Shown here piece by piece: positions 3,084 through 10,207 of a DNA stretch of 64,000 nt. Position 1 is the stretch's first letter, and every line of letters starts with the position of its first letter. Source of the stretch: an uncultured archaeon (GTDB lineage Archaea > Thermoproteota > Bathyarchaeia > Bathyarchaeales > Bathycorpusculaceae); NCBI GenBank assembly GCA_963782915.1, contig CAWALK010000012.1, positions 224,001 through 288,000 of the forward strand, given 5' to 3'. Below the pieces are notes generated by a model that saw only the letters and a list, made by a program, of their open reading frames with translations, made no database searches and had not been told where the DNA came from. The position numbers were made by a program, and so were the translations under genes.

Positions 3084-3472
3084 TTAACTGATTGAGACTG
3101 TGTCGTTTTCTACTGTTACTTTATTGCCTGTCTTAAATTTGGAGACGTCAATTTTGTCTACGAATGGGTATTTCGCTGATGATGGCTCCGACTGCGACGA
3201 TGGTTTCGGTTTCTTTGTTTATCATGGCTGCTGGGGCGACGCCGTTCTTTTTTAGGCGATAGAGCGTGTAGCTGCCCACTGTGCTGCCTTTGCCCTGTGG
3301 GAAGACGAGGATTTTGCCCTTCACGCTGACGCCGTTTAATTCGTGCCCTTTTTCCATAACTACGCCTGTGTTGGGGTCAACTCCGCCATAGAAGCTAATA
3401 GGCATCGTAGTTACCAGTGCTTCGCCTTGGGCTTTGCCTTTGTAGATTATTCGTGCCTTTTAATTGTTCCAT
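3084..3472 (-). CDS. Aconitase X swivel subunit (DUF126); putative phosphomevalonate dehydratase small subunit, frameshifted
   Basis: [11 protein letters not shown]...[22 protein letters not shown] signature. The start MEQLKG overlaps the large-subunit stop and the end FVDKID...TVSIS* is in another frame. Confidence 0.85.
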
Positions 3473-4670
3473 TTTCCGGTCACCGCTGCATTAACGCATT
3501 CTTCCATACTGCCCATCTTGGTTTTCATGAGGCTCTGTCTCGAGTAGAAGCAGCCCTTCGCCGATGTGGTTGCTAAGGCTTTGAATCTGCCTTTTAATGG
3601 CGCTACTGCCATGCAGGTGTCGCATGCGAATTTGCCGCCTGCTGCTTCGATGGTGGCTGTGTAGCCGCGTTTGTCCGCTAATTGTTTGGCTGTTCGTGAG
3701 GTTGCTACCCAGAGTTCTGTGCCTTCTTTGACTTTTTTGCCTTCGAGTAAGTCTGGCGATTTCTTGGATTTCTTTGATTGAGCAATGGGGGCAGCCGACG
3801 CAGACAAAATCTATGTCCTCTACGATCGTCGTTGATGTTGTCGTAGGCGTTTTTGATGTCTGCTGCTTCGATGGTTACTGTTTCTTTGGGTTGGGTTTGG
3901 GCTTCTGCTCCTGGTGTTATGCCTTTCATGTAGAAGAGCGGTTTAGCGCCGTAAGTTACTACTGAGGCGCAGAAGCTTTTGAGTTCATCCAGGGTTGCCG
4001 TTTTGATGCCTGTGATGTAGGGGATTTTGTTTTCTGCTTTTTTGCCGATGGCGTAGCCGAGTGCGCCCCAATCTGAGAGTTTGGTTAAGGGGGTGTTTAC
4101 TTGGACGTGGACATCTGGCACACGGTTTTCGTCGAGGTGTAAGCCGTAGCAGGGGGTTTTGCCCACAAATGCTGCTGCCAGTGCAGATGGTCCGCCTTCG
4201 CGGTTGGTGCGTGCACCCAACACTGAGTTGGCAAAAGTGACTGCGCTGCTTTCTGACCATGCGATGTGTTCGCCGTAGAGTGGCAGGTTGCCGATGAGGT
4301 AGGGTGTGCAGGTGCAGCTGATTAGGATGCCCATGCGTTGGAATGCGTCGATGACGAGGTTTTGTTTTTCTGCGAATTCGGGGCTGATGCCGAGTTGCTT
4401 CCAGTTTTCGAGGTCCATGCCTGCTGGGTTTAGGGTGGTCAGGACTTTGACTCTGCCATCCTTTGCGAGTGAGTCGAGGAATTCTAATCCGGCATCGCCG
4501 AGGTTATGGTAGCTTACGCCGGCTACTTGGACGCTGCCTACATCGATGAGGCTTTTAGCGCCGAAAATTTCTCCCAGCGCAACCAAGATTTCCATGCTTT
4601 TGCGGACGGCGTAGCCTTCTTTGCCATCCAGCATTGCTTGCTCTTGCTTAGTCAATTCCATAGCTATCAC
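3460..4670 (-). CDS. Aconitase X catalytic subunit (DUF521); putative phosphomevalonate dehydratase large subunit, frameshift near 3810
   Basis: MELT..E.AML.G..G, CTCTPY, AWSESSA..FANSV.GARTNREGG, and C-terminal DTC...P and TTSAK motifs. Confidence 0.9.
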
Positions 4671-5983
4671 AGGTACTTGTTTAGGTCAACTTTTACGTAG
4701 TCTACTTTACTAAAGCCTTTTCCCGTCGAAACCAAGGGTGCGGTGGCGTCTAAGCCTGCTTTGGCTGTGGTCGCCTTTTTGCCCTCGCTTAAGTCGCCTG
4801 AGGGGTCAAGAGATGAGCCGGGCTGGTTAGAGAGGATGACGCTGTTTTTGTCTGCTTGGAAACGTGTAGCGATTGCCCATTCCACGTCGTGTGGGTCATA
4901 GATGTTGATGTCTTCGTCGACTATGACGCAGTGCTTGAGTGAGCCATGCCCCTTGAAGGTGGCATCTATGGCTTTTCTGCCGTCATCCGGGTTTTGTTTT
5001 TTGATTTGGACAACGGCGTGTAGCCAGCTGCATCCGCCGGGTGTGATGTAGACGTCTTTGCATTGGCAGACTTTGCTGACTTCTTTGTAGATGGTTGGTT
5101 CTTTGGGCATGCCCATTAGGAATTTGTGCTCGTTTCTGCCCGCAAGGATGGTTTGGTAAATGGGGTTTTGGCGGTGTGTGACGCATTTGATTTCGACCAC
5201 GGGCTGTTGGCGTGTGCGGTCAACGATGCCGGTCAAGTCAAGGAAGGGTCCCTCTGTGGCTTTCTCTTTGGTAATTCTGCCTTCAAAGACGAATTCGCAG
5301 TCAGCGGGGACTTCTAAGTCAACTGTTTTACATTTCACCAAATCAGTTTTTTCTAGCACGTTTGCCATGCTTAACTCGTCAGCGCCCATCGGCAGGGTGG
5401 TGGCTGCTGAAAGCAGGGTTGCGGTTGAGTTGCCAAGGCAAATTGCGATGTCTAATTCGCCGCCTGCCTTAGCCAGCGCGGTATCTGTGCCTCTGTGCTC
5501 GACGATGCGGGCGACAAAATGGTTCTTGTCTTTAAGCATCAATCGGTGGAAGCACATGTTGCGTTTGCCCGTTTCCGGGTCTTTGACGATGGAGACGGCT
5601 GAGGCGATGTATTTTCCGCCGTCCTTGTCGGTGTAATGCATTATTGGGAGTTTGGTTAAGTCCACATCTGCGCCTGTATGGACGACTTCTTGGCAAGGGG
5701 CTTTCTCTACCATTTGTGGCGCAACTGGATGCTCGATGGCGTCAAGCAGTTTTGGCAGAAGTTGCTCTTTTGTGATGCCCATACTGCGGCAAATCAGCTC
5801 TTTAGAAGAAACCAACCCAGCCACCACTGGGATGCTGGATTCTTTGACGTTCTCGAAAAGGACTGGTTTTTCGCCGAGTGCAGCGATGATGCCTGCCATC
5901 TCAAACTCGGTTGAGACGGGCTTTGTGATCTTGGTTAATTCATTGGTTTTTTGGAGTTGTTCTATAAAGTTTCTTAAGCCCAC
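4667..5983 (-). CDS. UbiD family decarboxylase; putative anhydromevalonate phosphate decarboxylase
   Basis: UbiD motifs (EGPF.D.TG, VDEDI.IYD..DVEWAIATRFQ, SLDPS). Operonic with the two AcnX subunits. Confidence 0.9.
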   Translation of the reverse strand: MGLRNFIEQLQKTNELTKITKPVSTEFEMAGIIAALGEKPVLFENVKESSIPVVAGLVSSKELICRSMGITKEQLLPKLLDAIEHPVAPQMVEKAPCQEVVHTGADVDLTKLPIMHYTDKDGGKYIASAVSIVKDPETGKRNMCFHRLMLKDKNHFVARIVEHRGTDTALAKAGGELDIAICLGNSTATLLSAATTLPMGADELSMANVLEKTDLVKCKTVDLEVPADCEFVFEGRITKEKATEGPFLDLTGIVDRTRQQPVVEIKCVTHRQNPIYQTILAGRNEHKFLMGMPKEPTIYKEVSKVCQCKDVYITPGGCSWLHAVVQIKKQNPDDGRKAIDATFKGHGSLKHCVIVDEDINIYDPHDVEWAIATRFQADKNSVILSNQPGSSLDPSGDLSEGKKATTAKAGLDATAPLVSTGKGFSKVDYVKVDLNKYL

Positions 5984-6029
5984 TTTGGTTCGCCTTTAGC
6001 AGATTTAGCTGGTTGCTTCTTAAAAAACA

Positions 6030-6300
6030 ATCGGCGTTTTGTCTTTTTTCTTTTGGGTGGGGGCAGTGCGGTTTGGGGTGTCCCATCCCATCTGGGGGTT
6101 GTGGGGGCGGTTGGTTTTTGTGTTTGGGCTGATTTTCAAGTGTTTTGTGGGTGGGTGGAGCTCTTTTTTTGTCCCATCGGGTATGTTGAGCTATGTTGGG
6201 TGGGATGGGGTGCGGATGGGGCAGTATGTTGAGTTGAGCAGATTTTTTGTTGGGCAATTTTTTGTTCTTCAGGTTCTGAGTAGGGAATTTATAAGTTTCT
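6030..6300 (+). other. G/T-skewed low-complexity leader with short direct and inverted repeats and a TATA-like box upstream of the terminase module
   Basis: Many G-runs; GTCCCATC at ~6079 and ~6171; complementary GATGGG at ~6204 and ~6215; TATGTTG(A/G)G three times; TTTATAAG at ~6288. Confidence 0.55.
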
Positions 6301-6325
6301 AGTGGCAACAGAGTTATCGATAGTT

Positions 6326-6787
6326 ATGCCGGGTAAAGTGTGGAAGGCAGAAGAAGAAGCACAATTAAGAGCCCTTGTTGAAGCCAACTTGAACGTGGAT
6401 GAAATCGCTGCTAAACTCAAAAAGACGCCCAAAGCAGTGATTACAAAAAGTCAACGTTTGGGTTTGCAGTTGCAGGTTAAGGGATATGTTGATACTGCGA
6501 TTGATCTTCCAAGGGAGTTGCTCAGTGTTGAGGAAACCGCAAAGATCCTATCAGGTGTCTTAAAGGCGTCCGTTAAACCCGGGTTGAACAGGCTTGAGGT
6601 CCAGCGGTTGATGGCTGTTGCTAACATCTCAAAGACGTATAAGGAAATAATTGTTGACTACATCCACATGCGAGAGGTGGAAGAAAAATTAGAGGAGGTA
6701 GTTGAGCAGAATGCGGCGCTCCAGCAGGCGATTCGAGAAATTCGGGAAAGAACCCCGAGCTTATCGCCCCAACCAGTTCCTAGCTAA
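6326..6787 (+). CDS. Myb-like HTH plus coiled-coil protein; candidate terminase small subunit or DNA-binding partner
   Basis: W..EEE.QL..L......DEIA.KL.KT.KAV..K..RLGL helix-turn-helix and a C-terminal coiled coil. It overlaps the TerL start. ATG 6326 is preferred over GTG 6302. Confidence 0.6.
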   Translation: MPGKVWKAEEEAQLRALVEANLNVDEIAAKLKKTPKAVITKSQRLGLQLQVKGYVDTAIDLPRELLSVEETAKILSGVLKASVKPGLNRLEVQRLMAVANISKTYKEIIVDYIHMREVEEKLEEVVEQNAALQQAIREIRERTPSLSPQPVPS

Positions 6788-8180
6788 GTACCGTGAGCTT
6801 GAGCGGGAACATAATCAACTTAGGCAAACAGTTACGGAGCGGACGCAACAATTAAGCGCTAATACTGCTGACTTTTTTGAGCAGGTCTTGGGTTTTAAAC
6901 TCTTTGCCTATCAAAAAGAGTTCGCGGATATCTTTGAAAATAACCAGTTTACGGCTGCCCGTTGGTGTCGCCAAAGCGGAAAAAGCCAAACCATATCTGC
7001 GCTGCTGCTAAAGTACGCGGTTACCCACCCCAACGCGGAGATCGGTATAGTGGGGCCTTCTTGGCGGCAAACCAAAAGAATCATATCACGAATAGCCATC
7101 CTCGCCCACAAGCTACCACCAAGCATTGTCTTTAAGCCACAAAAAACCCGGATCAGTTTTGTTAACGGAAGCAGCATTGAAGCTTTCCCTAACAACCCTG
7201 AAACAATCAGAGGCCCAACATTTGATGTAGTGTATGCGGATGAGTTCAACTTTGTAGCTAACGACCAAGACCTCTACGACGCCATCCTCTACACGCTTGC
7301 AACTACCAATGGTAAATTCGTCTGCAGCAGCACGCCCTGGAACACTGATAGCGTCTTTTACAAGATTTTTAACCATAAGAATTTTGGGGAATTCAAAACT
7401 TCGCATGTTACATTCAATCAGGCGCTAAGCCCAAATGGTCCACTCTTGCCAAAAACCCTGCAGAGTATCAAGACGCAGATGGGCGAGGACCCCTCCCGTT
7501 GGCAGAGGGAAATGATGGCGGATTGGGTTGAAGACGATAACGTCTGGCTAAATCAGAGCCTAATTGCTTCCTGTATTGGCACTGAAAAAAGTTGCAGCAT
7601 GGATCTACAGTTGTTTAACTCCGAGAAAAGCTATGAAGGCGACTTCTATTTGGGTTTGGACCCGGCACAAACCAGGGACTTTCACGTGTTGTCAGTGGTG
7701 GAGGTAGTTGATGAAAAGCTTTTGCTGAGGCATCTAAAGATTTTTCCACATCCCACCTATGACGCCACCGTTTTGGGTTACATCAAAGCCCTGCAAGATC
7801 GCTGGGGCGGATTCCAAAAAATTCGAGTCGACATCACCCGTGAAGGTCCAAGCTTCATTGCTGACATGGAAAATGCCGACATAGAGAATGCTGAGGGCGT
7901 TAACTTCAGTGTACCCCGCAAAAGCGAGATGGCCAACCTACTTAAGAAACGCATGCAAGACAGACGCTTCTTCTATCCCATGGTGTCGTTTGAGAAACCA
8001 TACCGGGGCGATATCTGCAACGAGTTAAATATAGAGCGGTTTGCGCTGCGTGCAGACGGAGGATTATCATTTAGTCATCCGCAGGGAACACACGACGACG
8101 TTTTCTGGAGTATAGCCTTAGCTGTATATGCAACGGCTGACATGGCACCTGAACCCTACTTGGCAGTTATGCCAAGGTAA
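6702..8180 (+). CDS. Phage terminase large subunit-like ATPase-nuclease
   Basis: YQ adenine-binding motif, Walker A RQSGKS, Walker B VVYADE, coupling motif SSTP, RNase H-like LGLDPAQTRD and C-terminal HDDVFWSIALA. The ORF is intact. Confidence 0.9.
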   Translation: MSRMRRSSRRFEKFGKEPRAYRPNQFLAKYRELEREHNQLRQTVTERTQQLSANTADFFEQVLGFKLFAYQKEFADIFENNQFTAARWCRQSGKSQTISALLLKYAVTHPNAEIGIVGPSWRQTKRIISRIAILAHKLPPSIVFKPQKTRISFVNGSSIEAFPNNPETIRGPTFDVVYADEFNFVANDQDLYDAILYTLATTNGKFVCSSTPWNTDSVFYKIFNHKNFGEFKTSHVTFNQALSPNGPLLPKTLQSIKTQMGEDPSRWQREMMADWVEDDNVWLNQSLIASCIGTEKSCSMDLQLFNSEKSYEGDFYLGLDPAQTRDFHVLSVVEVVDEKLLLRHLKIFPHPTYDATVLGYIKALQDRWGGFQKIRVDITREGPSFIADMENADIENAEGVNFSVPRKSEMANLLKKRMQDRRFFYPMVSFEKPYRGDICNELNIERFALRADGGLSFSHPQGTHDDVFWSIALAVYATADMAPEPYLAVMPR

Positions 8181-8639
8181 TCGGAAAATGTTAGATTCCG
8201 CAACCAATTTCGCCATATAGGTGCAGAGCCCAAGATAGACCCTGAGATATCGTCTAAATCGCGATAGTGGAGCGGCAAAAATATCCTACAACGAGCAATT
8301 AGGCCCGGATATGGGCATAGAAGCAATCACCTACCAGAGTCAAAGTCGACGATGGCAGAAATGAACCAAAAACTAAGCACTTTTAACAGAATAGTAATCT
8401 ACCCCAAATACCGAGCTATATGTCTCCGAGAAAAAATAAATCGCGTTAAAACCCACCGCGTGTTGGTGCTGAATAATTTGATGGTGATGAATATTTTTCA
8501 GTCGTTGATTCGTGTTTGTTATCCTCGGGAAAGCATGCAAGGACCCGATCGTTTCGGGTTGTTTGCGTTGTATGAGTCGCAGAATAAATGATTCTGTGGA
8601 CTAGAGAGATCTTACACCTAACTTTGGTCCAGAACCTGG

Positions 8640-9083
8640 TTTAAAGGTACGTTGATTGAGCTGGGCTTTGTGCAACACTCGAAACCTTAACTAACCAAGC
8701 ATCCCAGTAGTCAGTTCCAAAAGTGTTTGTGGAACCTGACAGTACAAAACCTCGTCACTAGATAATCATAGAAATCAATTGGTCGTCACCTGTTCCTCCG
8801 TAGGTTTGATTCCATAAATGTTGCCAGAAGAATCGGTCTTAACTAACCAAGCGTCCGCTTTGCCCTCACCCGAAGAGGCTGTGTAGCCTGCAGTGGCGTA
8901 TCCGCCGTCGAATGTTTGTATTACAGAAAAAGCCCACTCCGCTCAGGTTCCTCCGAAGGTTTTGCTCCAAACCTGACTGCCAGACTGGGTTGAATCAGTG
9001 AATGCGTCAATTGTATTGGGCGCATTTGCCGCTGCAACTGTTACGATCAACAGCAAAACCAAGCTTTTGTTTAGGATACTCAT
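8640..9083 (-). pseudogene. Degraded secreted beta-propeller repeat protein (W.QTYGG / DAWLVKTD repeats)
   Basis: Manual translation MSILNKSLVLLLIVTVAAA...QVWSKTFGGT*AEWAFSVIQTFDGGYATAGYT...DAWLVKTDSSGN/WNQTYGGTGDD...DAWLVK, with an in-frame TGA, frameshifts and truncation. Confidence 0.75.
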
Positions 9084-9243
9084 GGGTTCGCTTTTTATGG
9101 CGGGCAATAAATATCCTTATTTGTCCAATTTTCTTGTCTAAGTCTTGTGAAGGTTTCTGGACTAAATCGGTGGCGTCGATAGCGGTCGATTACAATCTTA
9201 ATTGGCACTGTTTAGATGCGTAAAAACTAAAAAGAAATTGAGA

Positions 9244-9261
9244 CTGGGCTTTTGTGCCCAG
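9244..9261 (-). terminator. Hairpin followed by a T-rich tract downstream of mvk
   Basis: CTGGGC-TTTTGT-GCCCAG stem just beyond the mvk stop, followed by a T-rich tract on the minus strand. Confidence 0.45.
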
Positions 9262-9265
9262 CTGT

Positions 9266-10207
9266 TTAGTAGGTTACGATGCCGATTCTGGTCATCAAAT
9301 AATCGTAGCCTGCACCTTTGAAGGCACCTACGACTTTACCTTGAACTTCTTTGCCGGGAGTCAGTGCAACCATGCAACCTCCGCCTCCGCCGCCGGTCAA
9401 CTTGGCGCCGAATGCACCCTGCTTACGGGCGATATCAACGAGTTGGTCAAGTTCTTTGCTGGACACGCCGATTTCTTGGAGTATGCGGTGGTTTTCGTTC
9501 ATGAGGTCGCCGCATTTTTTGAGATCGCCTGCTTCGAGTGCTTTTCGCCCTGCAACTGCTAGAGATTCCGCTTGTTTGAAGAGTGGGTCATATTTGGCTG
9601 GGTTAGCTTTTTTGCGGTCAGCGACGCCTTCAACCATGGCTTTGGTGTTGGCGGTTTTGCCTGTGCTGCCGATGACGATTTCGATTGGTTTGCGTACATG
9701 GATTTTTTCGACGAGGTCTTGTCCGCCTGCGGGGTTTTTCTTGAACCACATTAAGCCGCCGTAGGTTGCTGCGGTGTTGTCGATGCCTGATGGGTTGCCT
9801 GCGTAGGCTTTTTCGCCCTCGTAGGCGACTGCGTTGATTTGCTCGTTGGTTAAGCCTAAGTTGAGTTCTTCGCTGATGGCTCGTGCGATGGCGACGCTGG
9901 ATGCTGCTGAAGCGCCTAGGCCGCTGAAGCCGGGTAATGTGCCGCCTATCCAGATGTCAAGCGGAGTTTTGGGGTCTAATTTCATGGCTTTTAGCATGCG
10001 TTCGATGGATTCGATTTGCTGGAGCCGTTTTTCTTCGCCGTAGCCTTTGGCGGTTTTGCGGTCGTCTTTTACGTTTAAGCCTTTTATGGCTTTTTTGACT
10101 TCTGCATCAGTGGAGGAATCAATCGCTGAAACTATGCCGGGAACTCCGTGGACAACGAAGTGTTCGCCGAATAGGATAACTTTTCCGTAACCTGAACCTT
10201 TACCCAT
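9266..10207 (-). CDS. mvk: Mevalonate kinase
   Basis: GHMP kinase motifs GKVILFGEHFVVHG, PGFSGLGASAA, GNPSGIDN and GAKLTGGGGGG. Confidence 0.92.
   Translation of the reverse strand: MGKGSGYGKVILFGEHFVVHGVPGIVSAIDSSTDAEVKKAIKGLNVKDDRKTAKGYGEEKRLQQIESIERMLKAMKLDPKTPLDIWIGGTLPGFSGLGASAASSVAIARAISEELNLGLTNEQINAVAYEGEKAYAGNPSGIDNTAATYGGLMWFKKNPAGGQDLVEKIHVRKPIEIVIGSTGKTANTKAMVEGVADRKKANPAKYDPLFKQAESLAVAGRKALEAGDLKKCGDLMNENHRILQEIGVSSKELDQLVDIARKQGAFGAKLTGGGGGGCMVALTPGKEVQGKVVGAFKGAGYDYLMTRIGIVTY

Follow-up and report, generated by a model that had tools for sequence, protein, structure and literature searches.

What is a DNA-packaging enzyme of viruses doing inside an archaeal operon for lipid synthesis, with no virus around it? 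The question is raised by a stretch of 64,000 nucleotides from an uncultured archaeon of the Bathyarchaeia (contig CAWALK010000012.1, positions 224,001 to 288,000; hereafter the window), in which a gene for a large terminase subunit (TerL) and a small upstream gene for a helix-turn-helix (HTH)/coiled-coil protein lie between genes of the mevalonate pathway. Our best reading is that the two genes are the exapted terminase pair of an ancient provirus, kept under selection; from the sequence comparisons described here we put its probability at roughly 0.65. The broader statement, provirus origin plus selective retention, appears quite probable. In what follows G000 is the window's own genome, other G numbers are related genomes, L numbers are fetched loci and C numbers are contigs.

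Two open reading frames (ORFs) on the plus strand were confirmed, 6302..6787 (161 aa, opening with GTG 6302) and 6702..8180 (492 aa, opening with TTG 6702). Alignment with 22 homologues gives ATG 6326 (153 aa, MPGKVW...) and ATG 6711 (489 aa) as the likely starts, so that the HTH gene (6326..6787) and the TerL gene (6711..8180) overlap by 77 nt in different frames. The larger product matches Pfam PF03237 (Terminase_6N; E 1.3e-16, 61.4 bits, cut-off 22), phrog_2 (E 3.2e-36) and the chains of T4 gp17 (E 9.8e-15), and its segments CRQSGKS, VVYADE, SST and LGLD align with the gp17 residues that we take to be Walker A, Walker B, the coupling motif and the first nuclease aspartate. Numbered from ATG 6711, the corresponding residues are K91 (Walker A), D177-E178 (Walker B) and S207-T208 (coupling motif), and the nuclease acidic residues are D317, D374 and D462-D463; phrog_5909 covers residues 209-477, the presumed C-terminal RNase-H-like nuclease region. 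The acidic residues are invariant in 22/22 aligned homologues, and together with both Walker motifs and the coupling motif they are invariant in 14/14 members of the clade to which the window's copy belongs. The protein is a large terminase subunit of the T4 gp17 type and a predicted ATPase-nuclease: the match above a curated threshold, the ATPase motifs and the nuclease acidic residues are all present, and only adjacency to portal or capsid genes is missing. The sequence-only reading of this DNA, which had described an intact TerL with Walker A/B, motif III and RNase H acidic residues, was right on this point.

The smaller protein is less easily classified. It reaches 22.8 bits against the GcrA family PF07750, below the cut-off of 26.9, and matches phrog_323, annotated as 'transcriptional regulator' (E 5.9e-9). 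A structural model (pLDDT 81) has helices at residues 8-44, 68-82 and 89-142, and its three-helix domain superposes on the GcrA DNA-binding domain 5yiu (TM 0.83 by the target, rmsd 1.1, 45 columns); beyond this domain the model has a linker, a short helix and a 54-residue helix predicted to form a coiled coil. Foldseek found no match for the whole model in the PDB at E <= 0.001, and clear likeness is limited to the 45-residue GcrA-type domain. Of the 42 fetched loci with a TerL ORF, virus-linked ones among them, 33 have a homologue upstream of TerL. Given the architecture of the protein and its constant position upstream of, and overlapping, TerL, we call it small-terminase-like, outside the known families: gene order and coupling are those of a small terminase, and the HTH with a helical region is there in the model, without membership of a described family.

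The pair seems to have expression signals of its own. A TTTATAA box at 6287-6293 lies 33 nt before ATG 6326, within the divergent intergenic region (5984..6325) that separates the HTH gene from the neighbouring gene for a UbiD-family decarboxylase, and across the G000, G014 and G012 orthologues the same heptamer precedes the ATG by 33-39 nt, at a place that is coding in the virus copies. This is consistent with a promoter-like box belonging to the pair in these three UbiD-locus orthologues; the overlap of the two genes and the TATA-like box, both pointed out from the sequence alone, thus stand. A sigma-70 promoter scan of the insert, irrelevant in an archaeon, gave a result below shuffled expectation and was set aside.

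To the left of the pair lie the UbiD-family gene (4667..5983, minus strand; Pfam UbiD, UbiD_N and UbiD_C, TIGR00148 412 bits) and then the large and small subunits of AcnX, and to the right the mevalonate kinase (MvK) gene (9266..10207, minus strand; TIGR00549 238 bits, cut-off 163), all of which we take to be enzymes of the archaeal mevalonate route. The placing of the pair between mevalonate-pathway genes, as first read, is correct. In six relatives (G003, G004, G013, G016, G019 and G040) the MvK and UbiD genes follow each other in one orientation with a gap of <=22 nt, and in G003 this empty site consists of a stop codon, 12 nt and a start codon. The window therefore carries an insert of 3,282 nt (5984-9265), antisense to the operon, which splits MvK from UbiD and AcnX. 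The intergenic region between UbiD and the HTH gene, TTTATAA box included, aligns between G000 and G014 and partly with G022; this common left junction indicates that the provirus had lost its left part by the time these species diverged. Nine metagenome contigs, among the best 80 of 470 relatives, repeat the UbiD-locus arrangement, and one of them holds AcnX, UbiD, HTH, TerL and MvK together, with a TerL 85% identical to that of the window; the arrangement is therefore no assembly artefact.

The origin of the insert becomes clear from comparison with related copies. TerL was searched for in 41 related genomes, G000 included, of which 31 had a match, with up to 10 matches per genome; some 9 kb on each side of 40 TerL copies were fetched and all ORFs clustered. 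In 10/33 genome-derived rows of the main tree the pair stands within a fixed colinear virus block, only partial in two of the ten. The block begins with a protease-like gene, a cement protein (PF09956), an HK97 capsid protein (PF05065 5e-13; phrog_10 1.4e-17) and several unknowns, and continues with the tail tube (PF18906 5.6e-14), tail proteins (phrog_400, YQBQ-like), v3, v18, HTH, TerL and v5. All viral-collection contigs with a full TerL ORF (76/76) carry block genes, and none exceeds 64% identity to the window's TerL. At 8304..8444 of the window, on the same strand as TerL and 124 nt past its stop, tblastn and blastx identify a remnant of the ABC-type ATPase/GNAT gene of cluster v5/c3, 32-47 codons matching residues ~292-340, with 75% identity to the genome's own copy on C11 and 49-59% to six others. 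The remnant directly after TerL marks the pair as the right-hand end of such a provirus. Judged by gene order and content, the pair derives from an ancient siphovirus-like provirus family, with HK97 capsid and tail tube, that is common in the genus.

The v5 remnant had been overlooked in the sequence-only reading, as had the TerL paralogues elsewhere in the genome: an intact one on C13 (58% identity), a copy on C11 with five stops, and, on C22 and C20, broken copies from a second family with ~30% identity. The full v5/c3 product (e.g. L062:10774-12213) has ~480 aa, with an ABC/SMC-type ATPase head (phrog_293 1.5e-35) and a GNAT acetyltransferase-like part; it adjoins TerL in every virus copy and gives weak PADLOC matches to defence ATPases (mad3, 1.7e-11), an unusual constant companion of a terminase. 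The C11 copy of G000 belongs to a decayed provirus (C11:128001-148000, L043) in which the HTH-TerL pair is inverted and lies far left, beside a 147-aa gene, c23, and in which the canonical slot between v18 and v5 is closed to a 70-nt gap. The order c23-HTH-TerL is also found, without virus genes, in G015 (L054 and L055); these two loci have ~7 kb in common at 95.6% identity and may be two strains of one locus and not two insertions. In a second provirus-like block of G000 (C18:12600-30200) the capsid gene (320 aa) looks intact, the tail-tube and tail genes are split, and a terminase is absent. The second terminase family occurs at L083, L086 and L087 (G013, G023 and G010) as a small upstream ORF followed by TerL, with no recognisable virus genes nearby; it is near-identical in G023 and G010 and lies in pieces in G000 (C22:324445-326218 and C20:432023-433786), so lone terminase pairs may have arisen twice. 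In the table of TerL matches of the relatives, isolated fragments of the last 40-100 codons (~14) are far commoner than isolated N-terminal ones (~3), and several of the C-terminal fragments lie 0.5-5 kb downstream of an intact TerL (L052 11263-11528, L051 6243-6499, L071 4485-4718).

Apart from the short v5 remnant, no gene of the parent virus family was found on the 453-kb contig. Across G000, PF05065 matches on contig C18 only, the portal family PF04860 has no match, and the integrase family PF00589 matches weakly and on other contigs, with none on the contig of the window; the absence of portal, capsid and integrase genes near the pair, claimed before for the 64 kb, thus extends to the whole contig. 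The Rfam search of the whole window gave 0 matches and the tRNA scan 0, which leaves no tRNA-type attachment site, and a repeat scan of the insert returned only short two-copy families of a size expected by chance.

The solitary state is not peculiar to this locus. A 38-row IQ-TREE tree places the window's TerL in a 14-copy clade (support 99) whose members all lack virus-block genes within ~9 kb. The clade stayed intact when viral contigs were added (FastTree local support 100), with a virus contig as its sister. When 79 of the 80 fetched metagenome relatives were placed as well, giving a tree of 188 rows, the window's clade grew to 48 rows (support 99), all solitary pairs with one basal exception, L212, with a v5 broken into two frames; the two outgroups that come next are virus-linked. 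Among the 34 metagenome rows of this clade, v5 is absent in 17 of the 18 with >=1.5 kb downstream of TerL, and v3, v18 or v2 occurs in 0/17 rows of the clade with >=1.5 kb upstream. Outside it, 41/45 metagenome rows carry virus genes, and two of the remaining four are too short for a call. L078 and L079, at first scored as solitary, were left out of this count, as they lie outside the main clade beside large colinear ORFs resembling another virus type. The survey of paralogues and homologue neighbourhoods that the sequence-only reading had proposed separates a clade of lone pairs from copies embedded in viruses.

The 48-row clade occupies several unrelated chromosomal loci, which raises the possibility of an autonomous or helper-dependent mobile mini-element, made of HTH, TerL and at first v5, and moved by the TerL nuclease or by virus-mediated transduction. 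Such an element would account for one monophyletic solitary lineage at many sites, for the nearest genome-derived relative of the window's copy lying at a different locus (G015 L049) while the MvK-UbiD site of G015 itself is without the pair, for the displaced and inverted pair on C11, and for the unequal divergence of HTH and TerL between G023 and G010 that is taken up below. However, neither terminal inverted or direct repeats nor target duplications flank the pair, no integrase or transposase accompanies it, and nucleotide homology between loci is confined to the two reading frames, ending at their start and stop codons. The v5 gene survives in three states at three loci, as a mid-gene scrap in the window, an N-terminal scrap at L057 and a split gene at L212, and it is lost in the locus-mates of L212, L222 and L231; these traces are better explained if larger inserts shrank repeatedly to one and the same gene pair than if a bare two-gene unit hopped. 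The UbiD-locus copies are moreover compatible with vertical descent. Approximately unbiased (AU) tests were run over the full set of 15 five-taxon trees, and no tree is rejected by the module data (minimum p 0.07; UbiD tree p 0.36); these data do not contradict vertical descent at the locus, and tree incongruence as a sign of horizontal spread there was dropped. We consider a mobile mini-element unlikely. Of the earlier suggestion of a domesticated or independently mobile unit, the first half is supported by the solitary clade and by the purifying selection described next, and the second half finds no backing in the borders of the pair.

An exapted pair should differ from debris in how its sequence evolves, and the rates at the UbiD locus argue for exaptation. 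Among its copies in 7 species dN/dS is 0.05-0.11 for TerL and 0.06-0.20 for the HTH gene, close to the housekeeping genes on either side in the same species (UbiD 0.05-0.08, AcnX 0.06-0.15, MvK 0.07-0.15). A second syntenic trio of lone pairs (G000 C13, G002 and G011) is unsaturated, with dS 0.09-0.15, and gives 0.04-0.09 for TerL. About 4% of random base changes in sense codons create a stop, so that a 1.47-kb frame is expected to hold dozens of stops after half a substitution per site of drift; the frames at the UbiD locus are open across species whose flanking genes differ by a dS of ~0.9 or more. The data indicate that the pair is under purifying selection and is not in plain decay.

The simplest competing view is nevertheless a decaying provirus fragment of which two genes are the last part left and have no present function. 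The v5 remnant right after TerL speaks for it, as do the decayed proviruses elsewhere in G000 (C11 and C18), the loss or breakage of the pair at the same site in G005 and G015, and broken copies in other relatives. Against it stand the open frames, the low dN/dS also in the unsaturated trio, and the motifs invariant in every clade member, whereas truly decaying copies are readily told apart, with 5 stops in the genome's own C11 TerL and 6 in that of G023:C10. Chance decay would also be expected to leave solitary pairs scattered among the virus copies and not gathered in one clade of 48, and in bacterial incomplete prophages terminases are among the genes preferentially lost, as far as the consulted part of PMC7744054 goes. 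Plain decay appears quite improbable. The sequence-only reading had named relaxed selection or flanking virus remnants as the marks of a decayed fragment; a flanking remnant (v5) is indeed present, and selection is not relaxed.

Several observations weigh against an exapted pair and should be set beside these results. At the MvK-UbiD site G005 keeps only a C-terminal TerL fragment, and G015 lacks the pair. The dS values for TerL, HTH and flanking genes at the UbiD locus are at or near saturation (>=0.9), and part of the purifying signal could date from virus ancestors or be renewed when copies recombine with infecting viruses. Between G023 (L056) and G010 (L052) the HTH protein is 88% identical in amino acids with dS 0.31, and TerL 79% with dS 1.15; the pair is therefore mosaic there, which hints at recombination inside the module. 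Three solitary copies (L072-L074) carry one stop, and several split copies exist in relatives. The small protein has no match to small-terminase families in Pfam, PHROGs, NCBIfam or PDB sequences. The large trees were made with FastTree only, and the clade includes many short metagenome contigs and some that duplicate genome copies exactly, which makes the counts non-independent. Finally, the AcnX large-subunit gene of the window (3460-4670, minus strand) falls into two overlapping frames (321 aa and 115 aa) where relatives have one frame of ~398 aa, either by a real frameshift in an essential-pathway gene or by an assembly indel; the presence of this frameshift in the G000 assembly makes decay calls based on frameshifts in G000 unsure.

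If the pair is kept, the question becomes what it can do in a cell without capsids. A profile of the capsid protein of the parent family, run over the 41 genomes, matches 21/41, with up to four or five capsid genes in a genome. It detects none in G022 (95% complete) and none in G010 (92% complete), both of which hold intact lone pairs, and in G023, which also has an intact lone pair, it finds a capsid pseudogene only (7 stops). PF05065 is likewise without a match in G022, G010 and G023; as the less sensitive profile, which missed the capsid gene of G012, its blanks count little. That related species keep the lone pair intact suggests some continuing activity, even with every capsid gene gone.

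One possible answer would be a host DNA transaction unrelated to capsids, such as site-specific cleavage or an HTH-guided defence nuclease. Besides the capsid-free hosts, the resemblance of the HTH domain to the cellular regulator GcrA is in its favour, and so is a small two-gene cassette right after TerL at five other loci (L043, L059, L071, L074 and L075), which consists of c12 (76-86 aa), often with c22 (131-134 aa), and which we take, from size and arrangement, for a putative toxin-antitoxin pair of the kind seen in defence islands. On the other hand, PADLOC returned 0 defence families for the HTH protein or TerL, which goes against the earlier idea of a defence system; no conserved partner genes stand beside the pair; and the ATPase coupling motif, like the packaging-motor architecture as a whole, is as well conserved as in virus copies, which a pure nuclease would not need. 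A host role of this kind is very improbable. A dispersed gene-transfer-agent-like system with head and tail genes elsewhere in the chromosome, likewise entertained in the sequence-only reading, would suit the family capsid genes that G014 and G000 hold elsewhere, but has hardly any chance of being right when G022 and G010 yield no family capsid gene and G023 only a pseudogene beside their intact lone pairs, when the structural blocks of G000 (C11, C18) have split capsid, tube and tail genes, even if some of these breaks may be sequencing errors, and when the capsid-bearing elements of G014 carry terminase pairs of their own.

For the exapted pair, the comparisons show the following history. 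A siphovirus-like provirus integrated between the MvK and UbiD-type decarboxylase genes of the archaeal mevalonate operon, and all other virus genes were deleted except for a scrap of v5, the pair staying intact under purifying selection. The motor motifs show the same conservation as in virus copies, so that DNA translocation seems to be what is selected for. This activity requires a portal-bearing procapsid, and in hosts without a capsid gene such a procapsid could come only from an infecting relative; from the conserved ATPase, coupling and nuclease motifs and the capsid-free hosts together we infer that the pair works on infection by a related virus. Procapsids would come from the infecting virus. 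The DNA site would be selected and bound by the HTH subunit, and TerL would make its cut at this site and attach itself to the portal of the virus. By competing with the incoming virus's own enzyme the resident terminase might reduce the number of virus genomes packaged, an interference with the virus, and host DNA next to the module might be loaded into particles, a hitch-hiking similar to lateral transduction. We offer this mechanism of packaging interference or hijack tentatively, as a possibility that falls somewhat short of even odds. The benefit might go to the host, by interference, or to the module, by spread.

A more specific version would make the pair a minimal helper-dependent 'packaging island', in which the HTH protein recognises a site in or beside the module and the resident terminase loads the neighbouring chromosome into the capsids of the infecting virus, lowers the yield of the virus, and spreads, taking adjacent host genes along, through homologous recombination in conserved flanking sequence, of which the mevalonate genes are an example. 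In this full form the proposal is rather unlikely.

Two further features of the insert may be described. A fragment of a gene for a secreted repeat protein (8780..9107, minus strand; a pseudogene) adjoins the MvK gene, and the same scrap is present in the 830-nt MvK-UbiD spacer of G015 (L098); G015 shares part of the old insert with the window's species and seems to have lost the pair. The intergenic region left of the pair contains, at 6038-6254, a copy of a dispersed GT-rich element of ~170-220 nt, 76-82% alike between copies and apparently intergenic in the neighbourhoods inspected. Other copies in G000 lie at C9:12359-12531, C24:81002-81223, C20:201-390, C14:31714-31866, C22:78831-79002, C19:35881-36047, C15:125198-125366 and C23:76262-76397. 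The element carries the complementary motifs CCCATCCCA and TGGGATGGG and has no match in Rfam, and the window copy folds slightly better than its shuffles (z -1.6). In G012 it adjoins the UbiD start with the pair 7 kb away, and it therefore does not belong to the pair; candidates for its nature are a small mobile repeat and an RNA gene.

To our knowledge, terminases are regarded as useless without capsids. Here at least 48 such pairs are preserved intact in species of an archaeal group that is uncultured yet abundant, which points to a use of the packaging motor that has gone unrecognised, be it virus interference, gene transfer or both, and at the window's locus a virus insertion that splits an essential lipid-synthesis operon was tolerated for a long time. 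If the packaging-island reading is true, terminase pairs stripped of all other virus genes would form a self-sustaining class of genetic element. The system is simple, with two genes, and a TerL match in an archaeal genome is not evidence of a provirus. The literature searched for orphan, solitary or domesticated terminases, for Bathyarchaeia proviruses, for the domestication of defective prophages and for minimal satellites describes no lone archaeal terminase pairs, although supplementary tables might list such fragments.

The pair can be compared with several known systems. Head-tailed viruses and proviruses of Bathyarchaeia are already described, in the parts consulted of PMC10848311, PMC11697101 and PMC11705971, and the parent element resembles them in its HK97 capsid, tail tube, TerL and ~20 kb of colinear morphogenesis genes; these papers treat whole viruses, and the consulted parts of PMC10848311 and PMC11697101 do not mention lone terminase pairs.

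Gene transfer agents of the RcGTA type (the consulted part of PMC5026251) also represent domesticated packaging machinery that the host keeps and that packages host DNA. They differ in having a full head-tail set under selection in the same genome, whereas G022 and G010 have no capsid gene by the family profile and G023 has a pseudogene only. Lateral transduction, reportedly described by Chen et al. in 2018 as packaging in situ from an integrated prophage, would be alike in that a terminase acts on a site in the chromosome and packages the host DNA beside it in one direction, as proposed here by analogy; there a complete prophage makes its own capsids, whereas here there is only the terminase and the capsids would come from another virus.

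PICI and cf-PICI satellites redirect packaging with a small terminase of their own, and like them a resident element with its own DNA-recognition subunit could use helper capsids and lower the yield of the helper. Unlike the pair, such satellites carry an integrase, regulators, replication genes and att sites and excise; the 3.28-kb insert has none of these modules and consists of HTH and TerL, two genes fixed between housekeeping genes. The PICMI satellite is a further example that redirects packaging (PMC10803314, seen in part), and archaeal satellites are so far plasmid-derived, with no terminase pair reported in the part consulted of bioRxiv 10.64898/2026.08.12.739948.

The closest parallel is the domestication of prophage genes. 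Bobay, Touchon and Rocha are said to have reported the domestication of defective prophages in bacteria in 2014, and the likeness lies in provirus genes that outlast the decayed virus in the chromosome, pass down to related species and remain under purifying selection; provirus origin, retention across species and purifying selection are all found for the pair. In bacterial incomplete prophages, however, terminase and portal genes are among those preferentially lost, according to the part consulted of Khan and Wahl 2020 (PMC7744054), whereas here the terminase pair would be the sole part kept, repeatedly, and in an archaeon. Domestication of prophage genes as such is known; a lone terminase pair in an archaeon would be a new form of it.

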